A stretch of DNA of 64,000 nt from Methanosarcinales archaeon Methan_01 (GTDB lineage: Archaea > Halobacteriota > Methanosarcinia > Methanotrichales > Methanotrichaceae). The stretch's first letter is position 1. Each line of letters begins with the position of its first letter. This document shows, one piece after another, positions 8,185 through 60,808 of this stretch. The notes beneath the pieces were generated by a model. That model did not search any database, was not told the origin of the DNA, and saw only the letters and a list, made by a program, of their open reading frames with translations. Position numbers and translations under genes: made by a program. Where the stretch lies: contig LUYE01000017.1 of NCBI GenBank assembly GCA_001602645.1, positions 32,714-96,713 of the forward strand. The letters are read 5' to 3'.

Positions 8185-8200
8185 GATTCCATCCTCAAAC

Positions 8201-9848: not shown

Positions 9849-9909
9849 GATCTATCTCCTCAGCTCTCTTTTTATTTACCCTTTCAGTTCCCTATACCGA
9901 TGAGGCCCT

Positions 9910-10935: not shown

Positions 10936-11069
10936 GGGAGATGGCGAGTACGGTCTGGCATAAAAACGACACGCTGGCGTCAAGCAGGGGGCCAGCTCCC
11001 CGATGAGGAGATGATATTGGCAGCGGAATAACCGGGCCGTAGGAGGGGCGGCTCAAGAAGAGGGTCCCT

Positions 11070-12032
11070 TCATCGAAGGCCGGGGCAGATCCGGTCGGCG
11101 AGGATGGAGAGGTCCGCGGCCACGCCCTCGATCCTCTTCCGATCCTCGAGCCGGGAGAGCCATCTCGCCGGGATCCATTCCGACCCCCGGGCCGCCCCCG
11201 CCAGGGCCCCGGCGATGGAGGCGATGGTATCGGTGTCGCCACCGGCGGAGGCGGCGGCTATCAGCGCCTCCTCCGGCTCGAATCTGATGTAGCAGAAGAA
11301 GGCTGCGGGGACGGTCTCGCTTACCATCGGCGACGTCCCCATCTCCGCCAGCGCCTCCCCCGGATCGAGGTCCAGAAGCTCCTTCGCCAAGAGAAGCCTC
11401 CTGCCGAACTCCCGATCTACCCTCTCGGAGGCGGAGGCGGCCATCTCCAGGACCCTGATGGGGGCGAATCCCAGGAGGGAGAGGGCGACCCCCACGGCGA
11501 CGGCGACCGACCCCGCCCTCGCTGCGGCTGAACAGTGAGTCGGAAGGCTTTGGAGGTCGGCGTACCGGGCGACGAGGTCGAGGCTGCAGCGGTAGACTAG
11601 GCCTATAGGCGCCGCCCTCATCGCCGAGCCGCAGGTCGGGGTCGCCACCCCCGCCTCCCGCCAGGTTCGGCCTCCCAGGAGCTCCTCGATCGCCGTCTTG
11701 CTCGTCCACCCGACCCCACGGTTCATCCTCGGATCGGCGGTCCAGCACCGGCCCCAGAGGGCGAGCTTCGAGGCGAACCTCTCGACGTCGAAGGATCCGG
11801 CCTCGATGAGGGTCTCCGCCAGAATGAGGGTCTGCTCGGTGTCGTCGGTGTATTGCCCCGGAGAGAGGCCGGAGTGGAAGTGGTCGGCGGCGGGGGCGAT
11901 CATATCCCGCACCTCGCCGGTGCCAGCCCGGATCTCCTCCGCGGTCATCCCCTCGACGGGCATCCCCAGGGCGTCGCCGACGGCAAGGCCGAGCATGCAG
12001 CCGCAAAATCGGTCCAAGAGCTCTCCTGCCAT
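11070..12032 (-). CDS. ADP-ribosylglycohydrolase family protein
   Basis: 320-aa ORF. The N-terminal DRFCGCMLGLAVGDALGMPVEG, then YTDDTEQTL, and the C-terminal GGDTDTIASIAGALAGA are hallmark ARH motifs. Confidence 0.85.
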   Translation of the reverse strand: MAGELLDRFCGCMLGLAVGDALGMPVEGMTAEEIRAGTGEVRDMIAPAADHFHSGLSPGQYTDDTEQTLILAETLIEAGSFDVERFASKLALWGRCWTADPRMNRGVGWTSKTAIEELLGGRTWREAGVATPTCGSAMRAAPIGLVYRCSLDLVARYADLQSLPTHCSAAARAGSVAVAVGVALSLLGFAPIRVLEMAASASERVDREFGRRLLLAKELLDLDPGEALAEMGTSPMVSETVPAAFFCYIRFEPEEALIAAASAGGDTDTIASIAGALAGAARGSEWIPARWLSRLEDRKRIEGVAADLSILADRICPGLR

Positions 12033-12156
12033 ATCGATGAGAAGGGAGCCCCGGGACTAAATAGTCGTCGGGGATGGGCCTGCTTTCCGGAAGGGGATGG
12101 ATCGAGAATGATATATAAAAAGGACGGATATAAGGAGAGAGGAGATGGGCCGAAGG

Positions 12157-13565: not shown

Positions 13566-13665
13566 CACCTGATTAAACAACATAAATTCGGAAAAAGCTA
13601 AATAGTTGATAGTGATACCCTTTGTCATACCACTTCGAATCTCCAAGGTCGAGAGAGGTCACAAA

Positions 13666-15543: not shown

Positions 15544-15574
15544 CCCCGGATATCTTTCTAGGAGTTGAAGAAGG

Positions 15575-16090
15575 ATGAAAGAGATCTTGGTAAGGCCTGA
15601 AAGGTGCATGGGGTGTCGCTCCTGCGAGATCGCCTGCGCCGTCGAGCACTCCGGAACAAAGAGCCTCTTTTTGGCCGTTGCCGAGAAGCCTGCTCCGAGA
15701 AAGAGGGTCTACGTCGAATTCGCCCCGGAGCACGCGATCTCGGTTCCCATGGTCTGCCGCCACTGCGAGGACGCGCCTTGCGTCTCGGTCTGTCCTACAG
15801 GAGCCCTCCGCCAGGACGAGGTGACCAGGATCGTCACCCACAACCCCGAGGCCTGCATCGGATGCTGGACCTGTGCGTCGGTCTGCAGCTACGGGATGAT
15901 CGGGAGGAACCGGGAGGAACGGGTGGCGATCAAGTGCGACCGTTGCCCCGACCTGGAGGTCCCCGCCTGCGTCGCCGCCTGTCCGACGGGAGCCCTCGTC
16001 TTCAAAGAGGTGGAGGAGTTCTCCGGGTCGAAGAGGGTCGAGTCCGCCCTGAAGCTGGCGAGGGGGGTAGCCGCCGGCAGCGGCCGGTGA
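15575..16090 (+). CDS. cooF: CooF-type polyferredoxin (4 x [4Fe-4S] motifs)
   Basis: 171-aa ORF. Motifs are CMGCRSCEIAC, CRHCEDAPCVSVCPTGA, CIGCWTCASVC and CDRCPDLEVPACVAACPTGA. It lies 31 nt downstream of cooS. Confidence 0.85.
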   Translation: MKEILVRPERCMGCRSCEIACAVEHSGTKSLFLAVAEKPAPRKRVYVEFAPEHAISVPMVCRHCEDAPCVSVCPTGALRQDEVTRIVTHNPEACIGCWTCASVCSYGMIGRNREERVAIKCDRCPDLEVPACVAACPTGALVFKEVEEFSGSKRVESALKLARGVAAGSGR

Positions 16091-16140
16091 CGGATCGCCC
16101 CGAGACCTCTTTATTGGGATCGATATGAGGCGACGGCCAG

Positions 16141-16656
16141 GTGGTCGACGACGGGGATGCGGCCAGGGTGAGTTTAAGGGGGTTTGATGAATTGGAGATT
16201 TACGTTGATTTGTGGAGGTGCATCTTCTGCCACGCCTGCGAGGTGGCGTGCGAAAGGGTCCACGGAAGCTCTAGGATATCGGTGGAGGCGGTGAAGGACT
16301 GGGCCTCAGTCCCCGTCTCATGCCATCACTGCGAGGCCGCCCCCTGCGCCCTCGTCTGTCCATCCGGAGCCCTAACCCAGGAGGAGGCGGAGGTCGCCTT
16401 TGAGGCCGGAAAGTGCACAAGATGCGGCCTCTGCATAATCGCCTGCCCCTTTGGGGCCGTCGATCTGGACCCCGCCGCCATGGTCCAGAAGTGCGACCTA
16501 TGTCCCGAGAGGGAGGTCCCGCCGTGCATCCTCACCTGTCCTACTGAGGCCCTGGTCTTCGGAGACCGGTTTGAGGCGACGGAGGAGCTGAGGAAGAGGG
16601 CGGCCTCGAGGATAGCTCAATCCTATGCCGCCTCCGTCGGGAGGGAGAGGGCATGA
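16141..16656 (+). CDS. Second CooF-like polyferredoxin
   Basis: 171-aa ORF starting at GTG 16141, with an alternative GTG about 27 nt downstream. Motifs are CIFCHACEVAC, CHHCEAAPCALVCPSGA, CTRCGLCIIACPFGA and CDLCPEREVPPCILTCPTEA. Confidence 0.8.
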   Translation: MVDDGDAARVSLRGFDELEIYVDLWRCIFCHACEVACERVHGSSRISVEAVKDWASVPVSCHHCEAAPCALVCPSGALTQEEAEVAFEAGKCTRCGLCIIACPFGAVDLDPAAMVQKCDLCPEREVPPCILTCPTEALVFGDRFEATEELRKRAASRIAQSYAASVGRERA

Positions 16657-17129
16657 CCGGTACCGAAGAACGCCTCTTGAGGGTCCTCGTCGTCGATGAG
16701 GATGAATGCATCGGATGTCGGGCCTGCTCAAACCTTTGGCCGGAGATATCCGCAGCAGTCGGCCTCTCGGATCGAGGGGCGAAGCGGACGATCCGATTTC
16801 CGAGTTTCCTTGAGGAGTTCGAGGCGAGGATCGCCGAGGCGCTGGCGGAGGCATGCCCGACGGGGGCGATCACCTTCGGACTGGCCGACGAATTGCCCGG
16901 AGAGGATAGCCTCGCCCTCACCTTCGAGATGGTCCGGTGCCGCATCTGCGGAAGGCCCTTCGCCACCAAAAAGGAGATGGAGTACATCCGGGATCGCCTC
17001 CCCGAGCCGGTTCAAGCGAGGGGCTCTGCCGCTTCATGGATGGATCTGTGCACCGGCTGTCGCCAGGCCGTCGGGCGGAACGCTGCGGCGAGGGAGCTGA
17101 TCGTCGCCAGGAGCTGGGCGAGGAGGTGA
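16653..17129 (+). CDS. Single-cluster ferredoxin-like domain fused to a CxxC...CxxC zinc-ribbon-like tail
   Basis: 158-aa ORF whose ATG overlaps the upstream stop (ATGA at 16653-16656). The N-terminal CIGCRACSNLWP...EACPTGAI resembles a one-cluster ferredoxin. The C-terminal VRCRICGRPF...(35 aa)...LCTGCRQ resembles a Zn ribbon. Confidence 0.6.
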   Translation: MTGTEERLLRVLVVDEDECIGCRACSNLWPEISAAVGLSDRGAKRTIRFPSFLEEFEARIAEALAEACPTGAITFGLADELPGEDSLALTFEMVRCRICGRPFATKKEMEYIRDRLPEPVQARGSAASWMDLCTGCRQAVGRNAAARELIVARSWARR

Positions 17130-20281: not shown

Positions 20282-20920
20282 TCAGGCTGCGGGCCAGTGG
20301 CGCCTCAGCCCCTGGAGGGCCTCCCTCTTCGCCTCCAAGAGGGGGCGGTCGTCGAAGCCGCAGAGGCCGGAGACCCTATCGATGGGGAGAGACCCCACGA
20401 GATCGGCCATGAACTCCGTCTTCAGGGCCATCAGCTCCTCCGACGACCGGGCCCTTCTGACCCTCCTCTGAAACCGGCCGGCGAGATCCGCGACCCGTTC
20501 CGCCTGATCTCCCAGGGCGGCCCGGACCTCGTCATTGGGGAACGAGGACCCAGAACGGAGCCGGAGGCGCTGGAGGCCTTCGACCGTCTCCACCAGCCTG
20601 TAATGGGCTCTTATGGCCAGATCGTAAGGGGTCCCCGCATCGGTGCAACGGCCGTACCTGGCGGCGTATCCGCACCCCTGGCAGTCGACGGCCCCGGGAC
20701 GGTAGAGGGTGCAGAAGGGGCAGTAGACCGGGCTCAGGGGAAGCCTCTCCAGCATCTCCAGGGCCGACCTCTCCGCCAGCTCTAAAACCGCCTCTCCGCC
20801 TTCCGCATCCTCTAGGTCGGCCCGGAGGTCGGATGCCAGGCCTGAGTACCCGTCCGCCACCTCCTCCAGGGCAGCCTTGACCCTCTCGGGCGGATCGGTC
20901 GAATTTTCATCGGGGATCAT
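20282..20920 (-). CDS. Hypothetical helical protein with a CxxC-x9-CxxC-x8-C cluster
   Basis: 212-aa ORF with protein-like composition. The Cys cluster is VYCPFCTLYRPGAVDCQGCGYAARYGRC. No family recognised. Confidence 0.5.
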   Translation of the reverse strand: MIPDENSTDPPERVKAALEEVADGYSGLASDLRADLEDAEGGEAVLELAERSALEMLERLPLSPVYCPFCTLYRPGAVDCQGCGYAARYGRCTDAGTPYDLAIRAHYRLVETVEGLQRLRLRSGSSFPNDEVRAALGDQAERVADLAGRFQRRVRRARSSEELMALKTEFMADLVGSLPIDRVSGLCGFDDRPLLEAKREALQGLRRHWPAA

Positions 20921-24862: not shown

Positions 24863-25641
24863 AGATCACCATCAAAGATCTCAGCTTCAGCTACGGAAGC
24901 CGGGAGATCCTCGAGGATCTGAACGTCGTCGTCGGCGACTCGGAGGTCCTGAGCCTTGTCGGGCCCAACGGCTCCGGGAAGACGACCCTCATCAAATGCA
25001 TCGACCGGATCCTTAAACCAAAAGGGACGATCCTCCTCGACGGCGGCCGAGACCTCCAGACCATGAGCCGGCAGGAGGTGGCGAAGTACATCGGGTACGT
25101 CCCCCAGTCGACGACGAGCGCCCTCACCACCACCGTCTTCGATACCATCCTGATGGGGAGAAGGCCCCGCATGGGGTGGCGGGTCTCAGACGAGGACATC
25201 GACAAGGTCGTCGAGATGATGAAGCTCCTCCACGTCGAGGAGTTCGCCCTCAAGGACTTTTCCGAGCTATCCGGGGGCCAGAAGCAGCGTGTCCTGATCG
25301 CCCGGGCTCTCGCCCAGGAGCCCGAGGTCCTCCTTCTCGATGAGCCGACATCGAACCTGGACGTCAAGCACCAGCTAGAGGCCCTCGACACCGTCCGGTC
25401 GATCGTCAAGACGACGAAGATATCGGCGGTGATGGCGATCCACGACCTCAACCTCGCAGCAAGGTACTCCGACACCCTCGTGATGCTGAAGAATGGAATG
25501 GTCCACGCCGTCGGCGATCCGCTATCCCTCTTGACAAAGGAGAACATTAGGGCGATATTTGGCGTCGAGGCGGTGGTGATGAGGAACCTGGACAGGCCTT
25601 ACGTCGTCCCGATCCGATCGCTGAACGGCGAAGCTCCCTAG
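24856..25641 (+). CDS. ABC transporter ATP-binding protein (FepC/BtuD-like)
   Basis: ORF 24613-25641. The upstream part overlaps the permease. The in-frame TTG at 24856 lies 8 nt after AAGGAGGA. Walker A is GPNGSGKTT, the signature is LSGGQKQRV and Walker B is LLLDEPTS. Confidence 0.9.
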   Translation: MVKITIKDLSFSYGSREILEDLNVVVGDSEVLSLVGPNGSGKTTLIKCIDRILKPKGTILLDGGRDLQTMSRQEVAKYIGYVPQSTTSALTTTVFDTILMGRRPRMGWRVSDEDIDKVVEMMKLLHVEEFALKDFSELSGGQKQRVLIARALAQEPEVLLLDEPTSNLDVKHQLEALDTVRSIVKTTKISAVMAIHDLNLAARYSDTLVMLKNGMVHAVGDPLSLLTKENIRAIFGVEAVVMRNLDRPYVVPIRSLNGEAP

Positions 25642-25978: not shown

Positions 25979-26374
25979 ATGGGAAGGACGGGCGGAAGAA
26001 GGGTCGACTTTTCGATCTGGCTCTTTGAGCAGCGGAATAGGGACGACCGGATCGGAAGAGCGGCCTTCGACGCCTTTCAAGAGCATCAGAGGAGGGTGTG
26101 GCCCGAGGCTCGGACCCTCCAGGACCGGCTGGACCTGATGAGGGAGAGGGGGGTTCGGGGCGCTCCCCTGAGGGCCCTGGAAGAGGCCTGGTGGGAGTAC
26201 ATCGACGTCGTCACCAAAGATGTCGCCGAGCATCACCTCCTCCTGGAGGCGGGAGCGGTGATGGAGAGGGCCCTCTCCAAGGCCGAGGCGGTCGAGGACG
26301 GCGATCGATACATCATCGACGGGGCTTCCGCCCAGCGGCTCAAAAGGCTGCTCGCGAAGCTGAAGGAGATATGA
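25979..26374 (+). CDS. Hypothetical protein with an N-terminal YozE-like SAM-like domain
   Basis: 131-aa ORF. DFSIWLFEQRNRDDRIGRAAFDAFQEH...LEEAWWEY resembles the YozE family pattern. The competing minus-strand ORF 25853-26236 is Pro-rich and judged to be antisense noise. Confidence 0.45.
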   Translation: MGRTGGRRVDFSIWLFEQRNRDDRIGRAAFDAFQEHQRRVWPEARTLQDRLDLMRERGVRGAPLRALEEAWWEYIDVVTKDVAEHHLLLEAGAVMERALSKAEAVEDGDRYIIDGASAQRLKRLLAKLKEI

Positions 26375-28282: not shown

Positions 28283-29056
28283 ATGAGATGTAAGTTCCTT
28301 CTAGCCGCCTTATCGCTTTTAGTTTTCGCCGGCACGGCATGGGGCGAAGAGGTCTCCGTGGATTTCTGCATCGACGGTGACATGGATCAACTCTGCGACG
28401 AGGAGTTCACCGCCTATGTGGAGCTTGATGGGCTGACGGACAAAAATTTATTGGAGGTTGCCTTCGAGGATGAGCTCTTCATCGATAACTGGGACGATTA
28501 CCTCTGGGCCGTCACCATCGAGGGATACGGTTACGACCTTCTTCCCCAATTCGATGGGCCGGAAGACGTATACCTAGCTGAGGGCGATGAGGTTTACATC
28601 TGGTATACCGGATGGATGTGGTATTCATCCTGCGAGGAGGGCTCCCAATCTCAGGATTCGACGGAATCGGATGGCTCTCAGGGCTCTGACCCTGGCTGGA
28701 GTTCCGATTCCGGCACTGGCTCTGGGTCCGGCACCGGCACGGGGCCAGGCTGGAACCCTGGATCCGGTTCCAGCGGCGGGACGGGAACGATCCCTGCCGG
28801 CAGCGCTGAGGTGAAGGCCGTCTCCAGCTGGCTATCGGGCTACACCGTCGAGGTCGACGGGGTTCCGATAGGGATCGATGGGACCGGCTCAGACGTTCTA
28901 GACGGCGTCTACACCTTCTACGTCGCTGGAAACCAGCAGCATAAGATAAAGGTGGACCACCCGGAGTTCTGGAAGAGCTGGGAGGAGTTCTTCATCTCCG
29001 GCAGGCGGTATACGGCCGATATCGACGTACCTGGAAGGATCGTCCCGTCCGGTTGA
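28283..29056 (+). CDS. Secreted protein with a Ser/Gly linker and the PEGA-like C-terminal module shared with 437-1267 and 59804-60808
   Basis: 257-aa ORF with a signal peptide MRCKFLLAALSLLVFAGTAWG. The C-terminal SGYTVEVDGVPIGIDGTGSDVLDGVYTFYVAG aligns with KGYSVFVDGSYVGGDGQGGDPLDGTFSLNVPG and RGYDVYVDEQYVGTDGKGGDALDGIYKVNVVG. Confidence 0.6.
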   Translation: MRCKFLLAALSLLVFAGTAWGEEVSVDFCIDGDMDQLCDEEFTAYVELDGLTDKNLLEVAFEDELFIDNWDDYLWAVTIEGYGYDLLPQFDGPEDVYLAEGDEVYIWYTGWMWYSSCEEGSQSQDSTESDGSQGSDPGWSSDSGTGSGSGTGTGPGWNPGSGSSGGTGTIPAGSAEVKAVSSWLSGYTVEVDGVPIGIDGTGSDVLDGVYTFYVAGNQQHKIKVDHPEFWKSWEEFFISGRRYTADIDVPGRIVPSG

Positions 29057-29208
29057 GACGGCCCTTTCCCATAAATTTTGAAGGCGCTCCTTCATCCTCA
29101 GCCGATATGCCATCTTGCGCCTCGCACCTATGCCTCCGCCATCCTCGGGCCATCCCTATATATCTGATCCGAGAGATATCCTGGGAAGACCTCCGGAGCC
29201 GATCCTCT

Positions 29209-30342
29209 ATGAAGAAGACCGACCTTCTGCCTGCCGCCCACCTTGGACTAATCCTTCTTCTGGCGGCCTCGCCATACTCGTCCGCTCTTCCGACCCTTCC
29301 CAGCGGGAAGGAGAACCCCCTCCCCCTCCTCTACCCCGAGCTCGAATCCCTCCCCGCCCCGCCCTGGGTCGTCGAGGGGCTGAGGGCGACCTACTATGCC
29401 ACCGTCGACGGCGGGACGACCGCCGGGAAGAGCTCGGCGGGGGAGGCCCTCATCCAGATCGACCTCGTGGCCCTGGAGGGCAGATCCGCCGCCACCTCCA
29501 CCTCCGTATACCTCCGGGGCCCCCTGGGGAGCCTCCGCCCCCTGACGGGGGCTGGGCATGGGGCGATCGTCCCGGCGGGGCTGGGCGACTTCTGGGCGAG
29601 CCCCGAGGTCCTGGCGGAGGCGACGGAAGGGGCCGATGACCGGGTTACGATAATTCGCGGCCCTGTAGAGGTGGCGGGAAAGAATTACCAGGGGATCAGG
29701 TTCGAGGTGACCCACCAGGGGCTCCGGTACTCCATGACCTACGACGAGGAGACCGGCCTACTCCTCCACCACCGCTACGACATCCTCTCGGCGGACGGCT
29801 CGGCCGTCGAGACGGGGATAATCGACTTCAGAAAGCTGCGGCAGCTGGTGATCCCGTGGGCCGGCGGATCTTCTCCAGGCTGGCTACGACCCGGCCTGAC
29901 CATGACATATCGAGGGCAGACCGTCTTCGAGATCCCCGGGACTGCGCCGTCGCCCTTCGCCTTGACCCTCACAGCTGAGGTCGTCTCCAAAGGTGCAAAA
30001 TCCTCCATCGTCAGATGGTCGGATGCAGGCGATAGCGGACTGCTGATCCCCGCCCGCTCCGCCGCCGGCGTATATCAGCTGATGGGATTCTGGCTCCCCG
30101 ACGCCGCCCTAGCCATCGACGATGGAGGTAACGTGGATTCAGATCCGGATACGGGCATGATGATAACCGTCATCCAGAACGATCAGAACGGCGTCGTCTT
30201 CGAGGAGACGAACGGCCAGGATTATCGGAGGCTTCTGACCTACGACAAGGCGACGGGAAAGCTCGTGACCAGCTACGAAGAGCAGCTGACAGAAGCGATG
30301 ACCGGCACGGTCCAGAAGACCTGGCTTGAGCTGGCCATATAG
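29209..30342 (+). CDS. Secreted hypothetical protein
   Basis: ORF 29053-30342. The internal ATG at 29209 gives MKKTDLLPAAHLGLILLLAASPYSSA, which is signal-peptide-like. No family recognised. Confidence 0.5.
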   Translation: MKKTDLLPAAHLGLILLLAASPYSSALPTLPSGKENPLPLLYPELESLPAPPWVVEGLRATYYATVDGGTTAGKSSAGEALIQIDLVALEGRSAATSTSVYLRGPLGSLRPLTGAGHGAIVPAGLGDFWASPEVLAEATEGADDRVTIIRGPVEVAGKNYQGIRFEVTHQGLRYSMTYDEETGLLLHHRYDILSADGSAVETGIIDFRKLRQLVIPWAGGSSPGWLRPGLTMTYRGQTVFEIPGTAPSPFALTLTAEVVSKGAKSSIVRWSDAGDSGLLIPARSAAGVYQLMGFWLPDAALAIDDGGNVDSDPDTGMMITVIQNDQNGVVFEETNGQDYRRLLTYDKATGKLVTSYEEQLTEAMTGTVQKTWLELAI

Positions 30343-40003: not shown

Positions 40004-41368
40004 ATGAGATGGTTACTTTGTCTCACGATCGCGCTTATGGCGCTGGCGCCGACAGCCCTCGGCGCGGTAGGGTTGGTTGAACAAACCGGGGAGTCTGCCT
40101 CCACCGGCCTCATGGGGTCGTACCAGGCAGAGGCCCCGAGCCTTAAAGGGCCTTACGATGAGGGGTATTCTCCGACGGACCTGAAGTTTCCCACCCCCGA
40201 GATGTACAGCTTCGCGCCCGAGGGGGGGCTGAGCTTCTCATCGGCGACCCCCCCGGACACCGTCCGGGCAGGGATGGAGGGATCCTCAGCAGCAACCTCT
40301 GTCTCCTGGTACTGGCCGGGGTCGGTGGAGTCCCAGAACAAGCTCTACGTCCAGACCCCCAATGGGGTGACGACGGTGGCGGGCTGCAGCAACGGCGGGT
40401 ATCTTCCCCTCTGGGCGAAGGTCGCCTACACCGGGAACTTCTTCGTCTACGAGTGGTATCCCAACAAGCTCACCCCCACGGTCAGCTGGCATTTCTGGAC
40501 GTGGCCCGACTACCTCAGGGGTTGGTTCCGAGGTGACGATCCCGGCTGGCATGTGGTATGCTTCCACTGCGACAAGGCCAGCAACTACGTCTACATATAC
40601 GTCTGGCCGGATTCCGGAGGCCATTCGATAGGCAAGTCCGGATCGTACTCTGGCGGGATGACCTATGCGGAGGGTACGATCTATGAGGAAGAGATGAAGA
40701 CGAGCTACTCGAAGATAGAGGCACCCCAGACGATGCCGTCGTCGACGTCTTTGGGCAGCGGAAGCCTCTCGACGGGGCTCGGGATGACAACCCCCACGCC
40801 GCCTGACCCCGTCTCCGAAGGGCTGATGCCCACAGATCTGCGGCTTCCAGCCCCAGAGTGCTCCACTTCCGCCGGTGGTTCTGGATTCTCCGGCGGGACG
40901 CCGGGAAGCACCGTCCCGTCGACCGGGACCGCTGCCTGCGGCGTTACCGCGACGGGCTACAGCTGCGGGACGATGGGCGCCATCTCGCCTCCCGGCTACA
41001 GCGCAGAAACCACCAGTACGGTTTCTGACTTCGGCCTCGTCTACACCCCGATGGCGGCTTCAAAGTACAACGAGTACTACGTCCAGACCTGGCCCAACAG
41101 GCTGACGACGGTGGCCAGCACCCAGAAGGGCGAGTGGCTCCCGCTCTGGTCCAAGATCACGCGACCGGGGATGTACTGGTCCTTCGAGTGGCCGCCGTGC
41201 AAGTCGGGGTACTACTGCAAGCCCGAGGTGAAGAGCCTAGGCTACAAGAAAGAGGGGTGGTATCCTACCTGGTTCAAGAGCAGCACCCCCGGATGGCACC
41301 TCCTGGTGTACCAGTGCAACGACTGGTCCAACTACGTCTACGTCTACGTCTGGCCCTTCGACTGCTGA
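40004..41368 (+). CDS. Secreted protein made of two copies of a module of about 170-195 aa related to the beta-domain of the 437/59804 family
   Basis: 454-aa ORF with a signal peptide MRWLLCLTIALMALAPTALGA. It has an internal duplication: YVQTPNGVTTVAGCSNGGYLPLWAKV...PGWHVVCFHCDKASNYVYIYVWP versus YVQTWPNRLTTVASTQKGEWLPLWSKI...PGWHLLVYQCNDWSNYVYVYVWP. Confidence 0.65.
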   Translation: MRWLLCLTIALMALAPTALGAVGLVEQTGESASTGLMGSYQAEAPSLKGPYDEGYSPTDLKFPTPEMYSFAPEGGLSFSSATPPDTVRAGMEGSSAATSVSWYWPGSVESQNKLYVQTPNGVTTVAGCSNGGYLPLWAKVAYTGNFFVYEWYPNKLTPTVSWHFWTWPDYLRGWFRGDDPGWHVVCFHCDKASNYVYIYVWPDSGGHSIGKSGSYSGGMTYAEGTIYEEEMKTSYSKIEAPQTMPSSTSLGSGSLSTGLGMTTPTPPDPVSEGLMPTDLRLPAPECSTSAGGSGFSGGTPGSTVPSTGTAACGVTATGYSCGTMGAISPPGYSAETTSTVSDFGLVYTPMAASKYNEYYVQTWPNRLTTVASTQKGEWLPLWSKITRPGMYWSFEWPPCKSGYYCKPEVKSLGYKKEGWYPTWFKSSTPGWHLLVYQCNDWSNYVYVYVWPFDC

Positions 41369-48234: not shown

Positions 48235-48259
48235 AAAAAACCGATCCATTTGTGGGATT

Positions 48260-49477
48260 CTATCCCCTCTTCGCCAGCGTCAGATCCCCGAAGGGCATGA
48301 CGATCGTCCTCGCATCCCGCCCCTGCCTCTCCCGGGCCATGGCGAGGGCCTCTGCGAGGCTTTTGGCAGGCCTGAAGAAGCACATCTCCGCGAGGGCGGG
48401 CGCCAGGGAGGAGACGAGGATCAGGTCCATCTCCAGGGAGTCCCTCGCGATGAGGGCGGCCTTGTGGCCGCCGAACTCGTACTCCCGGCCGAACCTCTCG
48501 ACGCAGTCCTCGGCGCACTTTGCCTCCATCGCCCACCGCTCGAAGACGGGGTGGCCGAGGCCTTCAGCGCACTCGGCTACGAGGATGAGGGAGCCTCCGG
48601 GGAGGACCGCCTCCCTCGCGTTCTCCATCGCCTTCTGGGCCTGGAAGAGGTTGATGTCCTTGGGGCGGCCGCCGGCGCAGGCGACGACGATCTCGGCGGG
48701 TTTGACGGCCCTCTGGTACATCTCGTCGACTACTCTCGCGCCGGCGCGGTGGGCTTTCACGAAGTCGCCGGCGACGGCCCGGACGATCTCCTTATTGCTA
48801 TTCAGAACGACGTTGAGGGTGAAGTCGAGGCCTGCAATTTTTGCCGCCTCCTCCATGTCCAGCCGGACGGGGCCGTCTAGGCGGCCGGACTTCGCCCTGG
48901 GGTCGGACATCATGGCGTGGTTCTTGTTGATCGACCTCTCGGAGCTGACGCCGGGGAGGAGGGCCTTCGCGCCGCCGCTGTAGCCGGCGTAGTAGTGGTA
49001 CTCGATATTCCCCGTCCCGATCTTGATGTCGGATGCCGCCACCTCCTCCAGGATCTCGACCGGAGTACCCCGGCTCGTCTCGCCAAGGTGGACGCATCGA
49101 TCCTTGTCGTGCTGGATGGAGGGGAGGCTGGCGGAGCCCTCCAGGAGGAGGGCCATCTCCTGGGCGGTCATCCTCCGATGGGTCCCCAGGCCGAAGACGA
49201 CCAGGATCTCGGATACCCCGACCTCTTCAAGCCTTCGGACGAGGGGCGGCAGGATCTTTGAGGTCGGCGCGGGGCGCGTTATATCGCTCACCATGATGGC
49301 GGCGGCCTTGAGTCCGGCGAAATCCCGGATGGTCGGGCCGAAGGGCTCGTCGAGGGCCCTCTCGATCTCCGCCGTCTCGTCGGGGGCTCCGGGCCTCTCC
49401 TCCGGGAGGACGACCTCAAAACCCTCGCATCCGTCCACCGGGAGGCGGATCCGGCCGGCGCCGTACCCGAGGTCCAT
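48260..49477 (-). CDS. LarA-family (nickel-pincer-nucleotide-dependent lactate racemase-like, DUF2088) protein
   Basis: 405-aa ORF with the motifs VSDITRPAP, GLGTHRRM, HYYAGYSGGAKALLPG and NKNHAMM. The ATG directly abuts the DUF58 stop codon. Confidence 0.8.
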   Translation of the reverse strand: MDLGYGAGRIRLPVDGCEGFEVVLPEERPGAPDETAEIERALDEPFGPTIRDFAGLKAAAIMVSDITRPAPTSKILPPLVRRLEEVGVSEILVVFGLGTHRRMTAQEMALLLEGSASLPSIQHDKDRCVHLGETSRGTPVEILEEVAASDIKIGTGNIEYHYYAGYSGGAKALLPGVSSERSINKNHAMMSDPRAKSGRLDGPVRLDMEEAAKIAGLDFTLNVVLNSNKEIVRAVAGDFVKAHRAGARVVDEMYQRAVKPAEIVVACAGGRPKDINLFQAQKAMENAREAVLPGGSLILVAECAEGLGHPVFERWAMEAKCAEDCVERFGREYEFGGHKAALIARDSLEMDLILVSSLAPALAEMCFFRPAKSLAEALAMARERQGRDARTIVMPFGDLTLAKRG

Positions 49478-50335
49478 TCAGGCCCTCCAGACCTTGGCCC
49501 GGCTGTTGACGTCGGAGAAGGCCTCGAATATGGGCCTATCGGTGGTGTAGCTGAAGAAGTCGGCCCCGACGGCGTCGCAGGCCTCCCGGATCCGGGCTTC
49601 GTGGGCCGCCATCCTCGCCGCGTACTCCTCTCTGACCTTGGGCGTCACCCTCGTCATCACCGCCTCCTTCGACTCCATATCGACGAACCGGAGGTCCCCC
49701 TCGAAGTCGAGGGCCGCCTCCGCCGGGTCGAGGACCTGGATCAGGATCAGGTCGTGGGCCGAGAGCTTATAGATCCCGGCGACGAGGCTCTCGATCTCGT
49801 CGAGGAGGTCGGAGACCACCACCACCAGGCTCGTCGACCTGATGGTTAGGTCGAACTGCTCCGCCATCCTCCGAAAGTCCGTCCCCCCCGAGGGGGCGGT
49901 CCGATCGAGCTCCTCCATGGCGAAAAAGAGGTTCCTCCGCCCCCCCTTCGTCTCCCCCGGCTCCAGCATCTCCCCGAACTTCGAGATCGAGAACTTCTCG
50001 TTCTCTTTTATCGCCATGTAAGCGAACCCCACCGCCACCTTTGATGCGAAGGCGAACTTCTCGCCGTAGTTCATGCTGGAACTCGCGTCGAGGAGGACGT
50101 GAACGGAGAGGCTCCTCTCCTCCTCGTGCTCCCGGACGTAGAGCTTCTCGGTCCTGGCGTAGACCTTCCAGTCGACGAACTTGAAGTCGTCCCCCTTCCG
50201 ATACTCCCGATATCCGACGGGGCTGATCCCCCGGCCCACCTTCACCGACCTCCGGGCCCCGGTGTAGGCGGTAGATACCCTCTTTCGCACGAGGAGGGTG
50301 AACCGGTCCAGCTCGGCGAGAAACTCCGTGTCCAT
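49478..50335 (-). CDS. DUF58-family protein (vWA-like partner of MoxR ATPases)
   Basis: 285-aa ORF. GYREYRKGDDFKFVDWKVYARTEKLYVREHEEERSLSVHVLLDASSSM is the canonical DUF58 core. Confidence 0.8.
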   Translation of the reverse strand: MDTEFLAELDRFTLLVRKRVSTAYTGARRSVKVGRGISPVGYREYRKGDDFKFVDWKVYARTEKLYVREHEEERSLSVHVLLDASSSMNYGEKFAFASKVAVGFAYMAIKENEKFSISKFGEMLEPGETKGGRRNLFFAMEELDRTAPSGGTDFRRMAEQFDLTIRSTSLVVVVSDLLDEIESLVAGIYKLSAHDLILIQVLDPAEAALDFEGDLRFVDMESKEAVMTRVTPKVREEYAARMAAHEARIREACDAVGADFFSYTTDRPIFEAFSDVNSRAKVWRA

Positions 50336-50344
50336 CGGCGGCCC

Positions 50345-51295
50345 TCAGATCGACTTCATGATCTCCGAGATCACCTGGTCGGTCGTGATGCCCCTCCTCT
50401 CGGAGTCGAAGGTGAGGATGATCCTGTGCCGGAGGATGGGGCGGGCCATCACCTCCAGGTCGGCACGATCGACGTAGTCCCTCCCGGAGAGGAGGGCCCG
50501 GGCCTTGGAGGCGAGGATGAGGCCGATGGAGGCCCGAGGGCTTGCGCCGTACTCAACCCCCTCCCAGCTCCGAGAGGAGACGACGGCCTTAATCGCCGCC
50601 CTCTTCAGGTCGTCGGAGATGGGGACGTCCCTCACAAGCTGCTGGAGGGATAGAAGCTCCCTTCGAGTGATCACCCTCTCCACCTTCGGCTCGGCGTGGC
50701 CGGTGTACCTCTCCATGATCTGATACTCCTCCTCGGGGCTTGGATAGTCTATGAAGACCTTCAAGAGGAACCGGTCGAGCTGGGCCTCCGGAAGAGGGAA
50801 AGTCCCCTCCATCTCGATGGGGTTTTGGGTCGCGAGGACGAAGAAGGGCTCCTCAAGCCGGTAGGTGTTCTTTCCTACGGTCACCTGCTTCTCCTGCATC
50901 GCCTCCAGCATGGCGCTCTGGGTTCGAGGCGAGGCTCGGTTGATCTCGTCGGCGAGGACGATGTTGGCGAAGATCGGCCCCTCCTCGAACCTGAAGTGCT
51001 TGCTCCCTTCCACCTCCTCGATCAAGGTGGTGCCGGTGATGTCTGCGGGCATCAGGTCCGGGGTGCACTGAATCCTGCTGAAGTTGAGGCCGGTGGTGCT
51101 GGCTATCGTCTTGACGAGGAGGGTCTTTCCTAGGCCGGGGTTACTCTCCAGGAGGATGTGCCCCCCCGCCAGGATGCCCACCAGAATCTGCTCCACCACC
51201 GACTTCTGGCCGACGACAACCTTCCCAATCTCGGCTTTGATCGTCTCGAAGATGGCCGGAGCATCCTTATAAACGTTGATCAGATCGTCTCTCAT
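50345..51295 (-). CDS. MoxR-family AAA+ ATPase
   Basis: 316-aa ORF. It has VVGQKSVVEQILVGILAGGHILLESNPGLGKTLL (Walker A), LADEINRASPRTQSAMLEAMQE (Walker B/sensor) and FFVLATQNP. Confidence 0.9.
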   Translation of the reverse strand: MRDDLINVYKDAPAIFETIKAEIGKVVVGQKSVVEQILVGILAGGHILLESNPGLGKTLLVKTIASTTGLNFSRIQCTPDLMPADITGTTLIEEVEGSKHFRFEEGPIFANIVLADEINRASPRTQSAMLEAMQEKQVTVGKNTYRLEEPFFVLATQNPIEMEGTFPLPEAQLDRFLLKVFIDYPSPEEEYQIMERYTGHAEPKVERVITRRELLSLQQLVRDVPISDDLKRAAIKAVVSSRSWEGVEYGASPRASIGLILASKARALLSGRDYVDRADLEVMARPILRHRIILTFDSERRGITTDQVISEIMKSI

Positions 51296-51341
51296 CTGTC
51301 CGCCCTCGGTGAGATCTACAGCTCTTTTTTTGTGTATTTCC

Positions 51342-52406
51342 TTATATTATTTCTTCATTTTGCCGAGGAGCCTCTCGAGAGAGGGCTGCCATCTTCTCGA
51401 AGTACCTCTTGATCACCTCGCGGTGCTGGGGGGGTAGGCTCTCGATGTATAAGTCCGTAGGGACCGCCACCCCCTCCCCCGGCTCCGAGGTGGCAAACAA
51501 CCGATCCATGGGCTCGGTCTCCCTCGAGCGGATCCCCGCCGCGGACCCCGGATAGAGGACCAGCTCCAGGTTCACCTCCTCCAGGACGGCCAGGGACGGC
51601 TTCCCGTAGATCTCCCCCGAGATCCCGGTGCTGGAGCCGTCCTCCTCGGAGGGCTCCTCATCCCCCAGAAGAGAGATAGCCCTCTCCCGGAGGTCGGAGA
51701 GGGACGAGAAGGGCTGGGGGGGGGCATCGTCTCCCGGGCTCTGACCGAAGATGGCCAGCGACGCGAGAAGGAAGACGAGGGCTCCAGCCTTGGCCTGGAC
51801 GGTGGGGACACTTTTATTGCCGAAACGGAGACGGCGCCTCTTCAAAAGGTCTGCGGCCCCCACCTTGGATAGGCACCTCTTGACGTCCTCGGCGAGGCTC
51901 TGCATCACCACCGAGTCGGATCTGCGGTTGTCGTAGGCGGCCTTCGTCTTCTCCGAGATCTCCTCGTCGAGGTGGGCGAAGAGGTCGTACCCCGACCTCT
52001 GACACAGGAATCTTCCTCCAAGAGCCCCCAGGAGGAGGGATGTGAGGGCAGGAGCCGCGGCTAGGAGGGAGCCGTGCCAGTAGAACCTGAAGAAGGCGGG
52101 AATCCCGAGGTACAGGGCGACGATGTAGATCAGGGTTGCGATTATGCCGGCGTTGAGGAGATACAGCCCCTGCTCAAGCCGCCTGTAGACCGCCGATAGC
52201 CTTCTCAGATCCGCCAGAAACTCGTACGAACCTTCCACGGACTCCCAAACGAGCCCATGGTAATAAGTAGTTTCCGAATTGAGATAAGCATCTGAAGGAG
52301 GGATTATTGCGTCCGATCCGGTGGCAAGGCGACGACGAAATCCCGCCTCAGATCTCGGAAGAGATATTATAGATCCTCGTATCCAATATGGATCGAAGAT
52401 TAACAC
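51342..52406 (-). CDS. Uncharacterised membrane protein, first gene of the MoxR cluster
   Basis: 354-aa ORF with TM stretches (LYLLNAGIIATLIYIVALYLGIPAFF, SLLAAAPALTSLLLGALGG, ALVFLLASLAIFG) and an acidic linker. The C-terminal motif is LPPQHREVIKRYFEKM. No family recognised with confidence. Confidence 0.55.
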   Translation of the reverse strand: MLIFDPYWIRGSIISLPRSEAGFRRRLATGSDAIIPPSDAYLNSETTYYHGLVWESVEGSYEFLADLRRLSAVYRRLEQGLYLLNAGIIATLIYIVALYLGIPAFFRFYWHGSLLAAAPALTSLLLGALGGRFLCQRSGYDLFAHLDEEISEKTKAAYDNRRSDSVVMQSLAEDVKRCLSKVGAADLLKRRRLRFGNKSVPTVQAKAGALVFLLASLAIFGQSPGDDAPPQPFSSLSDLRERAISLLGDEEPSEEDGSSTGISGEIYGKPSLAVLEEVNLELVLYPGSAAGIRSRETEPMDRLFATSEPGEGVAVPTDLYIESLPPQHREVIKRYFEKMAALSREAPRQNEEII

Positions 52407-52546
52407 CAGCCGAAATTAGGTTTATAGCCTTTGAAGAAGAACACCCCCTCGGCAGCCTCCTTCGAGAGGCAGAGTGGGGAAAAATCGACGATCGACTCTG
52501 GGCGCGGTTCTAGTCGGACCCGACCCCTTCAGGATATCCAAGAGAA

Positions 52547-54535
52547 ATGGCCGAGATTTCTGGGAAAAAAAGGCTGTGCTTATGGCTTTTGCCCCTGATC
52601 CTCGTAGCCCTGGCGCCGACCGCCTGCGGCGCGGCCGCCGAAGGAGCTGGAGGAAACGACGACAACGAAAGCTCCGCTGCGAAGGGCCCGGCAGAGGTGG
52701 TAGCAGCCGGGATCTGGATCGCGCCGGGAGGCGGTTGGGATAACGTCACCGGGGAGATGGAAGAGACCCTTCGCTCCCTCTCCGGCCCCTCCAGGGTCCT
52801 GAGGATCATGGTCCAGGAGGAGGAGGTGATCGAGCTCGGCTACATAGGGACCTCTGACGGGATCCTCGTCCTCTGGCCCGACGTCACCGAGACCCTCCAG
52901 ATGATCGCCCCCTTCGACTACCGGGAACGGCCCTGGTACCTGGAGGCGGCGAGGGAGGGAGAGACGGTCTGGACGAAGCCCTACCAGAGCCAGACGACCG
53001 GCAACATCTCCATCACCTGCGCGACCCCCATTCTGATCGAGGGGAACCTGAGCGGAGTGGTGGGGATGGACGTCTCCCTCGCAGAGATAGAGGTGGACCT
53101 CGCCAACATCTCCTCCGGCTACCCCTTCCTCCTCGACGGCCAGGGAGCGGTAGTTATGAAGTCGCCCCTTCCGGAGGGGTTCCTCTGGGATGAGATCCTG
53201 GCGCCGGGAAGCCTCCTCGACTCCAAAAACCTGGAGCTGGCGGAGCTGGCCGAGGAGATGGTCCGGGGAGAAGAGGGGATGGACTTGGTCCGTCTCGAGA
53301 AAGGGAGCACAAGGATCGTTTACTCTCCCCTGCCGTCCGTCGGCTGGAGCCTGGGGGTCGCCTCCGGAGACGGGGAGCTGACGGCCGCCAAGGCCGCCGC
53401 GTACGACCAGCTCTTCCACTGCATCTCGGGCCATACGGAGATCATGGCCCTGGAGACCGGCGAGGCGCTGAAAGGGAGGGGGTCGGTGACGGGGATCGCC
53501 CTTCCAGGGCTGGGGGACGGCGATGGCGACGGTGCAGGCCCCTCCTGGCCGATGGCTATCGCGGCGGCGGCTATCTTCGCCCTGATGGGGGGGCTAGTCG
53601 GATATTGGTCCGGCCGGAACGCCTTCGGCCCGATCTTCGAGGCGATCGCGAAGGGGCTTGAGGAGATCGGGAGGGGCGACCTAAACGCAAAGATCGAGGG
53701 GGACGGCCCGAGGGTGGTGAGGAGGCTGGGAGAGGCCTTCGATAAGATGGCCATCGACCTCAAAGATAGGATCTCCCTCTTCGAGGAGAGGTCCCTGGAG
53801 GCGGGAAGGTCTGAGAAGGCAGAAGAGGTGATGGAGGAGCTCCAGCGTTTCCTCCTCCCGGAGAGGGTCCCTCAGATCGAGGGGTTCCAGGTGGCGATCC
53901 TCGCCCTGGCCGAAGAGAGGGAATGCTGCCATTTCTACGACGCCTTCGAGATGGAGGGGGGAAAGGCGATGGTGGTTCTGGCCGAGGTCTCGGGGAAGGG
54001 GCTCTCCGCCGCCATGGTGGCTGCCGTCACCAGAAGCCACATAAGGGCGGCATCCCGCAAGCTAGGCGATCCTGCAAAGGCCCTCCGAGAGACGAACCAG
54101 AACCTCGTCGGGAACGTCCGGAACGGGATGGTAGTCTCCTGCTTCTGCGGGATGCTCGACCTCTCCAGCCATGCCATGAGCTACGCCAACGCAGGCCACA
54201 TCCCTCCCTTCATCGTCAGCTCCGACGGCTTCGTAGACACCCTCGTCGGCGGCGCCATAGCCATGGGCGCCCTCGACCACATCGATCTGGAGATGGAGGG
54301 GTGGATGATAGATCCGGGGGACGTCCTCGTCATCTACAACGACGGCCTCATCGAGGTGGAAAACGACGGAGGGGAGAGGTTCGGGACCGAGAGCCTGATA
54401 ACCCTGGTGAAGGATAACAGGGAGAGGTCGGCTCAGGATATAGTGAAGGAGCTGGAGAGGGCGATCAGGGACCATATGGGTGGCGATGGGGGGAGGCCCG
54501 ATGCCGCCGCCATGATAGTGAAGAGGGCCGGATAA
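52547..54535 (+). CDS. Cache-HAMP-PP2C (SpoIIE-type) sensor phosphatase
   Basis: 662-aa ORF. It has a signal/TM segment and an extracytoplasmic Cache-like domain (YRERPWYLEAAREGETVWTKPY...GVVGMDVSL). A second TM, a HAMP domain (IAKGLEEIGRGDLNAKIE...AFDKMAIDLKDR) and a C-terminal SpoIIE/PP2C domain (FYDAFE...LAEVSGKGLSAAM...NAGH...YNDGLIE) follow. Confidence 0.8.
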   Translation: MAEISGKKRLCLWLLPLILVALAPTACGAAAEGAGGNDDNESSAAKGPAEVVAAGIWIAPGGGWDNVTGEMEETLRSLSGPSRVLRIMVQEEEVIELGYIGTSDGILVLWPDVTETLQMIAPFDYRERPWYLEAAREGETVWTKPYQSQTTGNISITCATPILIEGNLSGVVGMDVSLAEIEVDLANISSGYPFLLDGQGAVVMKSPLPEGFLWDEILAPGSLLDSKNLELAELAEEMVRGEEGMDLVRLEKGSTRIVYSPLPSVGWSLGVASGDGELTAAKAAAYDQLFHCISGHTEIMALETGEALKGRGSVTGIALPGLGDGDGDGAGPSWPMAIAAAAIFALMGGLVGYWSGRNAFGPIFEAIAKGLEEIGRGDLNAKIEGDGPRVVRRLGEAFDKMAIDLKDRISLFEERSLEAGRSEKAEEVMEELQRFLLPERVPQIEGFQVAILALAEERECCHFYDAFEMEGGKAMVVLAEVSGKGLSAAMVAAVTRSHIRAASRKLGDPAKALRETNQNLVGNVRNGMVVSCFCGMLDLSSHAMSYANAGHIPPFIVSSDGFVDTLVGGAIAMGALDHIDLEMEGWMIDPGDVLVIYNDGLIEVENDGGERFGTESLITLVKDNRERSAQDIVKELERAIRDHMGGDGGRPDAAAMIVKRAG

Positions 54536-59780: not shown

Positions 59781-59804
59781 GCCGGATCTCGGATCCGATC
59801 CGGC
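59781..59804 (-). terminator. Hairpin at the stop codon of 59804-60808, followed on the minus strand by a T-rich tract
   Basis: GCCGGATC-TCGGATCC-GATCCGGC forms an 8-bp stem. The minus-strand downstream sequence is AATTAATTATTTCTATTTTA. Confidence 0.4.
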
Positions 59805-60808
59805 TACCACATGCCGCCGTAGACGTAGACGGTGGTGGCGGGCTCAAACTTCAGGACGACGGGCGTATTCCGCTGGTAGAACCTAGGCTTTCCGTAGAAC
59901 CACTCCCCGTCCCAGACCTTGATGGTGTGCCACATCCCTCCGACGACGTTCACCTTGTAGATCCCGTCGAGGGCGTCGCCCCCCTTCCCGTCGGTCCCGA
60001 CGTACTGCTCGTCGACGTAGACGTCGTAGCCCCTCATCCTCTGGGATTCGAGGGTGACCCTGACGTCCCCAGAGGTGGTGACGGGAGCGGGGCCTGGGGC
60101 TGGCGCCGGGGCGGAGGGGAAGGCCGCCGGCGTGGGGGCGGAGGTGGTGGCGGAGGAGCCGCCGATCATGTCCGGGGTCAATTCCGCGCCGACGTCGACG
60201 ATGACGACGTTGCTCGCAAGGCCGTTGGAGACGAAGAAGAGGGCGTACCTACCCTGCTCACCGGCATAGAAGCTCATCCTGTCGTAGGTGCCGAGGGTGT
60301 ACGGGACGATACCGACGTTCCCGGAGGGGGATACCTCGTAGAACTCGGCCGACCCCCCCGAGGGGGTGGTGGTGATCAGCTGGAGCCAGGTTCCCACGGG
60401 ACAGGCGGCGTATCTGGTCCAGGCCTCCGACCCCTCGATCCAGAGCTCGTTGGACCCGCCGTACATCTCCGAGGACGCGTACGTGGAATATGGAACCGTC
60501 TGCCATCCGAAGTAGAGGAAGGAGGGCTCATTTCCCGTTATCGTGAAGCCGACAGGACGATGATCGGTGGAGAATACCTCATCCTCCGAGAAGAAGTACT
60601 GGAAGTACTGGGAGTAGCTGAAGCTAGAGCTGTAGCCCTCGGAGGAGCCCGAAGCTCCGTGGAGCTGCCCGGCGTAGTTGAGATAGTCCTCGCCGAGGTT
60701 CCCGAAAAAATCGTCGTCGTTTTCGCCGTAGGCCTGGGCCAAGCCCAGGCATAATAGCATTATGGCAATTGACAAGATTGCCCCACTCCATAGTTTCATC
60801 AATAACAC
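59804..60808 (-). CDS. Secreted modular protein, paralogue of 437-1267
   Basis: 334-aa ORF with a signal peptide MLLMKLWSGAILSIAIMLLCLGLAQA. It has the same beta-domain, Pro-rich linker (APAPAPGPAP) and PEGA-like C-terminal module as 437-1267. Confidence 0.65.
   Translation of the reverse strand: MLLMKLWSGAILSIAIMLLCLGLAQAYGENDDDFFGNLGEDYLNYAGQLHGASGSSEGYSSSFSYSQYFQYFFSEDEVFSTDHRPVGFTITGNEPSFLYFGWQTVPYSTYASSEMYGGSNELWIEGSEAWTRYAACPVGTWLQLITTTPSGGSAEFYEVSPSGNVGIVPYTLGTYDRMSFYAGEQGRYALFFVSNGLASNVVIVDVGAELTPDMIGGSSATTSAPTPAAFPSAPAPAPGPAPVTTSGDVRVTLESQRMRGYDVYVDEQYVGTDGKGGDALDGIYKVNVVGGMWHTIKVWDGEWFYGKPRFYQRNTPVVLKFEPATTVYVYGGMW

Follow-up and report, generated by a model that had tools for sequence, protein, structure and literature searches.

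Operons in which the gene of a MoxR-type AAA+ ATPase is followed by genes for a DUF58 protein, von Willebrand factor A (vWA) proteins and tetratricopeptide repeat (TPR) proteins make up the MRP ("MoxR proper") or Bat class, and the bacterial Bat operons of this composition have been tied to oxidative and heat stress (PMC11834572). MoxR-DUF58-vWA operons of the MRP type are widespread in bacteria and archaea, and no molecular client has been defined for them. For enzymes of the LarA family, which carry a nickel-pincer nucleotide (NPN), LarB, LarC and LarE are at present considered sufficient. MoxR-class ATPases acting with vWA partners mature or reactivate metalloenzymes, as in NorQ/NorD, CbbQ/CbbO and CoxD/CoxE. 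Here a gene cluster is described from a stretch of 64,000 nucleotides (nt) of Methanosarcinales archaeon Methan_01 (family Methanotrichaceae, methanogens that live on acetate; contig LUYE01000017.1, positions 32,714 to 96,713), referred to below as the window, in which a LarA homologue directly follows a MoxR-DUF58 pair (together, the trio) downstream of a gene for a DUF7502-type membrane protein. The link between LarA and MoxR-DUF58 is real and conserved in Methanotrichaceae, and apparently it is undescribed. The literature searched yielded no paper that connects racemases of the LarA family with MoxR or DUF58, and MCON_0090 to MCON_0092 also gave no matches there; a recent comparative-genomics preprint on Methanothrix mentions none of the trio or DUF7502 genes, and lactate racemase is not mentioned in the Methanothrix/Methanosaeta literature found.

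The cluster consists of four head-to-tail genes on the minus strand, separated by spacers of 46 nt (membrane protein gene to MoxR), 9 nt (MoxR to DUF58) and 0 nt (DUF58 to LarA). An earlier reading, made from the sequence without database searches (the sequence-only reading), had given the same four genes with these positions, strand and gaps, all of which match the sequence. The elements of the cluster, in window positions and with the source of each assignment in brackets, are:

48260–49477, minus strand: LarA homologue of the LarAH6/Mar2 (malate racemase) group, 405 amino acids (aa), last gene of the cluster (Pfam, NCBIfam, PDB)
49478–50335, minus strand: DUF58 protein, 285 aa, vWA-like fold with intact MIDAS (metal-ion-dependent adhesion site) (PF01882, AlphaFold2 model)
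50345–51295, minus strand: MoxR-type AAA+ ATPase, 316 aa, AAA_3 core followed by AAA_lid_2 (Pfam)
51342–52238, minus strand, reading frame open to 52406: divergent DUF7502 membrane protein with its most likely start, a GTG, at 52238 (298 aa) (homologues, gene calls)
49484–49488, minus strand: Shine-Dalgarno GGAGG located 6 nt upstream of the LarA ATG, inside the DUF58 3' end (sequence)
50336–50346, minus strand: MoxR-DUF58 junction, a 9-nt spacer with a GAGG overlapping the MoxR stop, 7 nt before the DUF58 ATG (sequence)
48235–48240, minus strand: T6 tract, candidate archaeal oligo-T terminator, 19 nt past the LarA stop (sequence)
52363–52428, minus strand: TATA-like elements upstream of the DUF7502 gene, candidate promoters, GCTATAAACC at 52428–52419 and TCTATAATATC at 52373–52363 (sequence)
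51352–51340, minus strand: AT-rich third element before MoxR, candidate promoter only (sequence)

The stop codon of DUF58 and the start codon of LarA abut (TGAATG), and the GGAGG that precedes the LarA ATG is perfect. This junction, together with the Pfam domains, bears out the gene identities and the DUF58-LarA coupling of the sequence-only reading. Judged by the spacing, MoxR, DUF58 and LarA very probably form one co-transcribed unit, and the T6 tract falls in the 25-nt spacer between LarA and a convergent translin-like gene. A single continuous reading frame spans the three genes (48260–51295, minus strand), with two stop codons and the 9-nt spacer in between.

A scan of one genome per GTDB species gave 80 LarAH6-type loci (individual loci are cited below by L numbers), which were then searched by tblastn with the window proteins. 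MoxR, DUF58 and LarA are adjacent and in the same order in 31 of the 33 species-representative loci from Methanotrichaceae, with identities to the window proteins of 61–85% for LarA, 67–95% for MoxR and 48–92% for DUF58; the full four-gene operon is also found on a metagenome contig (L093), on which DUF58 and LarA overlap by 4 nt. Around the trio the gene content varies. For most loci of the soehngenii-like clade, a search within 10 kb of the trio recovers none of the 10 flanking window genes; the translin-like, AP_endonuc_2 and aRF1 genes on the downstream side are common only to the closest relatives, and the upstream DUF7502, SpoIIE and DUF2117 genes are common to part of the family. In the soehngenii-like locus L016 (2660–7586) a complete 16S-tRNA-23S-5S operon is followed by the trio at a distance of about 430 nt, and in L021 an rRNA fragment (11463–12040) lies just downstream of LarA on the opposite strand. 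The adjacency of the trio is more than chance, as 31 of 33 loci retain it amid differing flanking genes; a chance juxtaposition, which the sequence-only reading had expected to betray itself by absence from related genomes, is not borne out.

The junction between DUF58 and LarA is similarly tight across the family. Once the longer N-terminus that LarA has in the soehngenii-like clade is allowed for, most species have a spacing of 0–25 nt; L023 and L031 show ATGA overlaps, and L007–L012 a layout of TGGAGG, stop and ATG with gaps of 1–5 nt. All three genes are intact family-wide, with no internal stops and with the MIDAS, the Walker B motif and the catalytic motifs of LarA kept, and the three proteins remain under constraint. 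The DUF7502 gene lies outside this conserved core. It is missing from the neighbourhood of MoxR in the soehngenii-like clade, and in L092 and L094 it is found detached, with no MoxR, DUF58, LarA, BatA or vWA gene within 10 kb. Because DUF7502 is detached in these two loci and LarA has been kept with the pair, the ancestral cluster must have broken between DUF7502 and MoxR, LarA staying with MoxR-DUF58. The linkage of LarA to the pair is tighter than that of DUF7502, itself a member of the ancestral cluster.

Across much of Methanotrichaceae the divergent neighbour of DUF7502 is a gene for a dCache-HAMP-PP2C (SpoIIE) sensor phosphatase, located in the window at 52547–54535 (plus strand). The same type of sensor phosphatase occurs in L093 (1427–3499) and in L094 (424–2472), where the detached DUF7502 gene still adjoins the divergent dCache-SpoIIE gene, and the Bat-like clusters of other archaea (L087–L091) lack it.

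The LarA homologue has the two-domain architecture of its family, with Lar_N (PF09861, E=6.3e-52, residues 5–197) followed by LarA_C (PF21113, E=1e-17, residues 259–397). It scores 512.5 bits against the NCBIfam model NF052593 (LarAH6 malate racemase; cut-off 500), the other LarA models staying below their cut-offs, and Mar2 of Thermoanaerobacterium thermosaccharolyticum (PDB 6D6Z) matches it end to end (E=8e-105, residues 3–401), all NPN-binding and catalytic residues being present in the window protein. The motifs singled out by the sequence-only reading (SDITRP, GLGTHR, YAGYSGGAK and NKNH) are present in the translation and align to Mar2. In full, SDITRP supplies D65 and R68, GTHR supplies H100, EYHYYAGYSGGAK supplies H161 and K171, NKNH supplies H187 and QAQK supplies Q279 and K282; these eight residues are invariant among the window LarA and 17 relatives, and the motifs are kept in the Methanotrichaceae loci save for QAQK variants in three. 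By analogy with LarA of L. plantarum, we take these positions to be the catalytic histidine pair, the NPN-tethering lysine, the nickel-ligand histidine and the Asp/Arg and Gln/Lys contacts. The nearest named relatives are the proteins of Ca. Methanocrinis alkalitolerans (84% identity) and M. harundinacea (81%), which places the window in the harundinacea/Methanocrinis group of Methanotrichaceae; a LarA of identical sequence occurs on long contigs of Methanothrix metagenome-assembled genomes and metagenomes. By these matches the enzyme itself is a canonical member of the known LarAH6/Mar2 group and not new; Dataset S1 of Desguin 2020 already has its M. concilii orthologue, MCON_0092, under Group 06 "MAR", and the archaeal members of Group 06 were not among the enzymes assayed in that study (PMC7583248). 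What differs is the setting, since the contexts reported for the LarAH6/Mar2 group are malic-enzyme, oxidoreductase or lar genes, whereas the window LarA stands with MoxR-DUF58. As the sequence-only reading had noted, larB, larC and larE are not seen in the window: no expected Pfam family was matched among the open reading frames (ORFs) scanned across the 64 kb, the genes at 41.4–43.2 kb being covered through precomputed Pfam assignments on an identical contig.

The origin of the arrangement can be approached through the relatives of DUF58 outside the family, which were collected first by searching 50%-identity cluster representatives exhaustively and then with a profile. The nearest come from Methanolapillus, Methanimicrococcus, Methanohalobium, Methanoperedens, ANME-2 and DPANN archaea; among the ten closest cluster representatives the four with names belong to Nanoarchaeota, Altiarchaeales, Woesearchaeota and Natronomonas, and none is named Methanothrix. 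A BatA gene was present in all five contexts looked up. In Methanolapillus and Methanoperedens the order is DUF7502, MoxR, DUF58, a BatA/DUF7408/DUF7406 protein of about 630 aa and a protein of 840–890 aa, the last with vWA domain matches in Methanoperedens and only a faint GATase1_like match in Methanolapillus. The ANME-2 locus (L089, 4695–7401) has DUF58 followed by BatA with no adjacent MoxR, its upstream gene lying on the other strand, and two DPANN-type contigs (one a Nanoarchaeota metagenome-assembled genome) carry the same gene set in a different order.

This archaeal set of DUF7502, MoxR, DUF58, BatA-DUF7407-7408-7406 and vWA genes, which includes examples from Woesearchaeota/Nanoarchaeota, contains the closest outside relatives of the window pair (38–50% identity for DUF58, 64–65% for MoxR), and DUF7502 lies upstream in four of the five examples, as it lies upstream of MoxR in the window. 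On sequence comparison the MoxR-DUF58 pair is orthologous to the pairs that accompany BatA. BatA sits directly 3' of DUF58 in Methanolapillus, Methanoperedens and ANME-2, and LarA has this position in the window; the genes for the BatA-like protein of about 630 aa and the vWA protein of about 800–890 aa are missing from the Methanotrichaceae cluster, with LarA there instead. As tblastn queries, the BatA-like proteins and the large vWA proteins from Methanoperedens, Methanolapillus and ANME-2 gave no match in the window or in any Methanotrichaceae locus, and no such gene was found within 10 kb of the 33 loci or near the detached DUF7502 genes of L092 and L094. The cluster can therefore be described, from its gene content, as an archaeal Bat-like operon with LarA in the BatA/vWA position, a placement that favours recruitment as its history. 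That a LarA-like protein had been recruited into a Bat-like MoxR system was the second of two readings offered from the sequence, and it agrees with the gene sets around the closest DUF58 relatives.

In the Bacteroides Bat or MRP operons (MoxR, DUF58, vWA/BatA/BatB, TPR) an AAA_3 MoxR is directly followed by DUF58, as here, the best folds matched by the DUF58 model are those of Bacteroides BatB and an aerotolerance protein, and the membrane-associated context corresponds (PMC11834572). The archaeal cluster differs in that DUF58 is followed by a soluble NPN enzyme, with no BatA, BatB, vWA-membrane or TPR gene, and in that its first gene encodes DUF7502.

The ATPase matches AAA_3 (PF07726, E=3.9e-63) and AAA_lid_2 (PF17863, E=5.7e-19) and has VLADEINR as its Walker B motif, and its P-loop, ESNPGLGKT, has serine at the first glycine position; this variant, ESNPGL[G/A]KT, is common to the BatA-linked MoxR orthologues of Methanolapillus and Methanoperedens, which are 64–65% identical to it. 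The glycine before the P-loop lysine is alanine (GLAKT) in many MoxR members, among them those of the soehngenii-like clade and Methanoperedens (L015–L024, L088). Its partner DUF58, whose gene starts 9 nt after the MoxR stop, matches PF01882 (E=1.8e-40) and carries a MIDAS of the form D83-A-S85-S-S87 followed by S175-D176. The AlphaFold2 model of DUF58 (predicted local distance difference test score (pLDDT) 81.4, predicted template modelling score 0.76) has a vWA fold. The PDB folds it matches best belong to Bacteroides BatB (3IBS, E=2.6e-8), to an aerotolerance protein of B. fragilis (4JDU) and to the MIDAS domains of CMG2 and MDN1, the match probability being 1.00 for the vWA domains of BatB and CMG2. 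The DxSxS motif is kept in 30 of the 31 Methanotrichaceae copies of DUF58, the exception being a truncated copy.

The first gene of the cluster is divergent. Its product reaches DUF7502 in Pfam only below threshold (E=0.003, 17.4 bits where the cut-off is 27); PF24334 is, however, a precomputed assignment on many homologues of this protein, and the DUF7502 proteins of Methanoperedens and Methanolapillus match the equivalent gene in L009, L013, L014, L023, L025 and L032 (E=1e-15 with the Methanoperedens query). On this homology the membrane protein is a divergent member of DUF7502. The reading frame 51342–52406 proposed for it exists, but a start at 52406 (354 aa) is unlikely: gene callers on identical contigs give 298 aa and the homologues listed are mostly of 273–300 aa, which makes the GTG at 52238 the most likely start. 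Hydropathy indicates two to three hydrophobic helices and the protein has a disordered acidic stretch; the AlphaFold2 model is helical (pLDDT 72) with residues 194–259 disordered, and a fold search of the PDB with it gave no match at E<=0.001.

NorQ/NorD, CbbQ/CbbO, CoxD/CoxE and BchI/BchD, invoked as analogies by the sequence-only reading, share with the window pair an AAA+ ring and a MIDAS-bearing vWA partner encoded beside a metal-cofactor enzyme. The analogy holds for this functional logic and not for family membership, since the window ATPase belongs to AAA_3 (211.6 bits) and not to AAA_5 (49 bits) or Mg_chelatase (17 bits, below the cut-off), the bpMoxR model giving 48 bits; VWA_CoxE was faintly matched on some homologues only, and the BchD and cobaltochelatase models stayed far below their cut-offs on the window proteins. 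The RavA-ViaA/LdcI system of E. coli offers a precedent in which the partner bound by a MoxR ATPase is a soluble enzyme of metabolism whose gene lies nearby (PMC6987120). RavA differs in belonging to another MoxR subfamily and in having its own LdcI-binding "LARA" domain, a name unrelated to the LarA racemase. Co-occurrences of "LarA" and "MoxR" in the literature were set aside, being mainly due to this LARA domain.

For the function of the cluster, a chaperone-client relation is favoured tentatively, at somewhat less than an even chance: MoxR-DUF58 would remodel LarA and so serve the loading, exchange or repair of its NPN. A canonical NPN-dependent LarA of the LarAH6/Mar2 type would have arrived immediately 3' of DUF58 in the ancestor of Methanotrichaceae, and the ancestral cluster of DUF7502, MoxR, DUF58, BatA/DUF7408 and vWA would have lost BatA and the large vWA protein. 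The MoxR hexamer, with DUF58 as its MIDAS-bearing vWA adaptor, would then act on LarA as a client, the two-domain enzyme being opened or remodelled so that NPN may be loaded, exchanged or repaired, and translational coupling would set the stoichiometry. Both the physical contact and the direction of action in this model are what we infer. The client relation is favoured because the linkage resists rearrangement and LarA holds the position of the partner gene in Methanosarcinales, and because MoxR/vWA pairs mature metalloenzymes and Mar2 did not become loaded on co-expression. Specifically, co-expression with the NPN-synthesis genes in L. lactis left the LarAH6 enzyme Mar2 without NPN, which means that loading is not always autonomous (PMC7583248).

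Several observations weigh against the client relation. Characterised LarA enzymes take up NPN without an AAA+ helper (PMC7583248). Outside Methanotrichaceae neither MoxR nor DUF58 was found in the fetched flanks of any of the 47 LarAH6 loci (42 of them with at least 1.2 kb upstream), which include Methanosarcina, Methanoperedens, Methanocellales, Hydrothermarchaeota and Clostridia, and the published context analysis of 354 LarA homologues in the supplement of the 2020 superfamily paper contains no COG0714, COG1721 or MoxR. Methanoperedens has a LarAH6 gene as well as the orthologous MoxR-DUF58 operon, the two being unlinked. The association has a single evolutionary origin and is confined to one family. 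Even within that family L029 and L030 keep LarA (64–65% identity) without MoxR-DUF58 nearby, and in a minority of loci the spacer between DUF58 and LarA is 40–120 nt, which could hold a promoter of its own. In a comparison of 30 LarA-linked copies of DUF58 with 35 outside relatives of the BatA type, the LarA-linked copies retained each of the 47 positions conserved to at least 90% in those relatives; MoxR and DUF58 show no sign of a changed function.

A survey of LarAH6 neighbourhoods, of the kind suggested by the sequence-only reading, found the adjacency in Methanotrichaceae and in none of the 47 loci elsewhere. The dedicated maturation module which that reading had proposed keeps in its favour a rearrangement-resistant linkage in one family; the lack of MoxR and DUF58 at LarAH6 loci elsewhere speaks against its generality and the constraints kept by MoxR and DUF58 against a changed function, and L029 and L030 have LarA without the pair. 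In its strict form, with MoxR-DUF58 as an ATP-driven LarA activase that loads, exchanges or repairs the fragile nickel-pincer nucleotide in a LarAH6 racemase, the proposal is doubtful.

Hitch-hiking without interaction is nearly as likely as the client relation. LarA may have been inserted at the 3' end of an existing MoxR-DUF58 unit and simply been inherited there, in which case MoxR-DUF58 would keep their ancestral Bat-type job on partners encoded elsewhere and LarA would be an ordinary malate or 2-hydroxyacid racemase needing only LarB, LarC and LarE. In its favour are the one origin in one family, a MoxR and a DUF58 unchanged with respect to their BatA-linked orthologues and the solitary LarA of L029 and L030. 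DUF7502, a canonical member of the Bat-like set, is still present in the family, which suggests that the old system still works, and elsewhere LarAH6 stands in metabolic contexts (beside a GlcD-like oxidase and a CCG Fe-S protein, beside a Na+/solute symporter or among tandem LarA paralogues). An insertion of this kind accounts less readily for an adjacency that outlasted repeated reshuffling of both flanks, including the split from DUF7502, and for the abutment or overlap of stop and start codons maintained in both major clades; furthermore, the 64-kb window contains neither BatA nor a large vWA gene, and none was seen beside the detached DUF7502 genes or up to 10 kb from any of the 33 loci.

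An indirect coupling, by which LarA and MoxR-DUF58(-DUF7502) would be co-expressed for a shared response, for example to stress or at the envelope as ascribed to bacterial Bat operons, with LarA supplying or removing a D- or L-2-hydroxyacid and not being a substrate of the ATPase, is improbable. The conserved operon structure would suit it, as would the ties of bacterial Bat operons to oxidative and heat stress (PMC11834572) and the divergent dCache-HAMP-PP2C sensor phosphatase adjoining the ancestral arrangement. No metabolite link is known between malate racemisation and any Bat function, however, the sensor phosphatase stays with DUF7502 and not with the trio when the cluster splits, and the reading is purely inferential. 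A role as a defence system was rejected, as PADLOC reported nothing for three of the proteins and a marginal IetA match (E=4e-4) for MoxR, whose bpMoxR score of 48 bits is well below that for AAA_3.

Should the client relation hold, the cluster would offer a soluble candidate client whose nickel content and racemase activity are easily measured, so that the mechanism of MoxR-DUF58 could be tested in a heterologous host, and nickel-pincer enzymology would gain a step of maturation or repair, in a group that is among the most abundant of the methane-producing archaea. An activase proper would be the first accessory factor of an NPN enzyme beyond LarB, LarC and LarE, and LarA would be the first defined soluble client of the functionally obscure MRP/DUF58 class of MoxR proteins. 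If LarA has only hitch-hiked, the locus is still a clean example of gene replacement within an operon.

The LarAH6 loci outside Methanotrichaceae show other settings. In a Hydrothermarchaeota metagenome-assembled genome (L044, 7441–9953) genes for a GlcD-like FAD oxidase and a CCG/4Fe-4S protein directly precede LarAH6, a typical context of 2-hydroxyacid oxidation in contrast to the MoxR context. Genomes of the Methanosarcina type carry two or three tandem or nearby LarAH6 paralogues with 46–51% identity to the window LarA, which in L053 adjoin a Na+/solute symporter. Loci with such paralogues are:

L045–L047, L051, L053, L054, L057, L062, L065–L067, L073, L074, L078, L082

In the rest of the window no known RNA family was found with Rfam. 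Sizeable ORFs with coding-like GC content at third codon positions and no Pfam match at E up to 0.01 are located at 28283–30342 (plus strand), 40004–41368 (plus), 59804–60808 (minus) and 20282–20920 (minus). Further ORFs of this kind without a Pfam match, considered to E=1e-4 only, are 260–1267 (plus), 24891–25547 (minus) and 25979–26374 (plus), of which 24891–25547 has an atypical codon-position GC content. The window also holds the large subunit DP2 of PolD (2612–6334) and arginine-biosynthesis genes (6751–10983), and at 13606–17129 (plus strand) a gene of the Prismane/CO-dehydrogenase family is followed by three ferredoxin-type 4Fe-4S genes.

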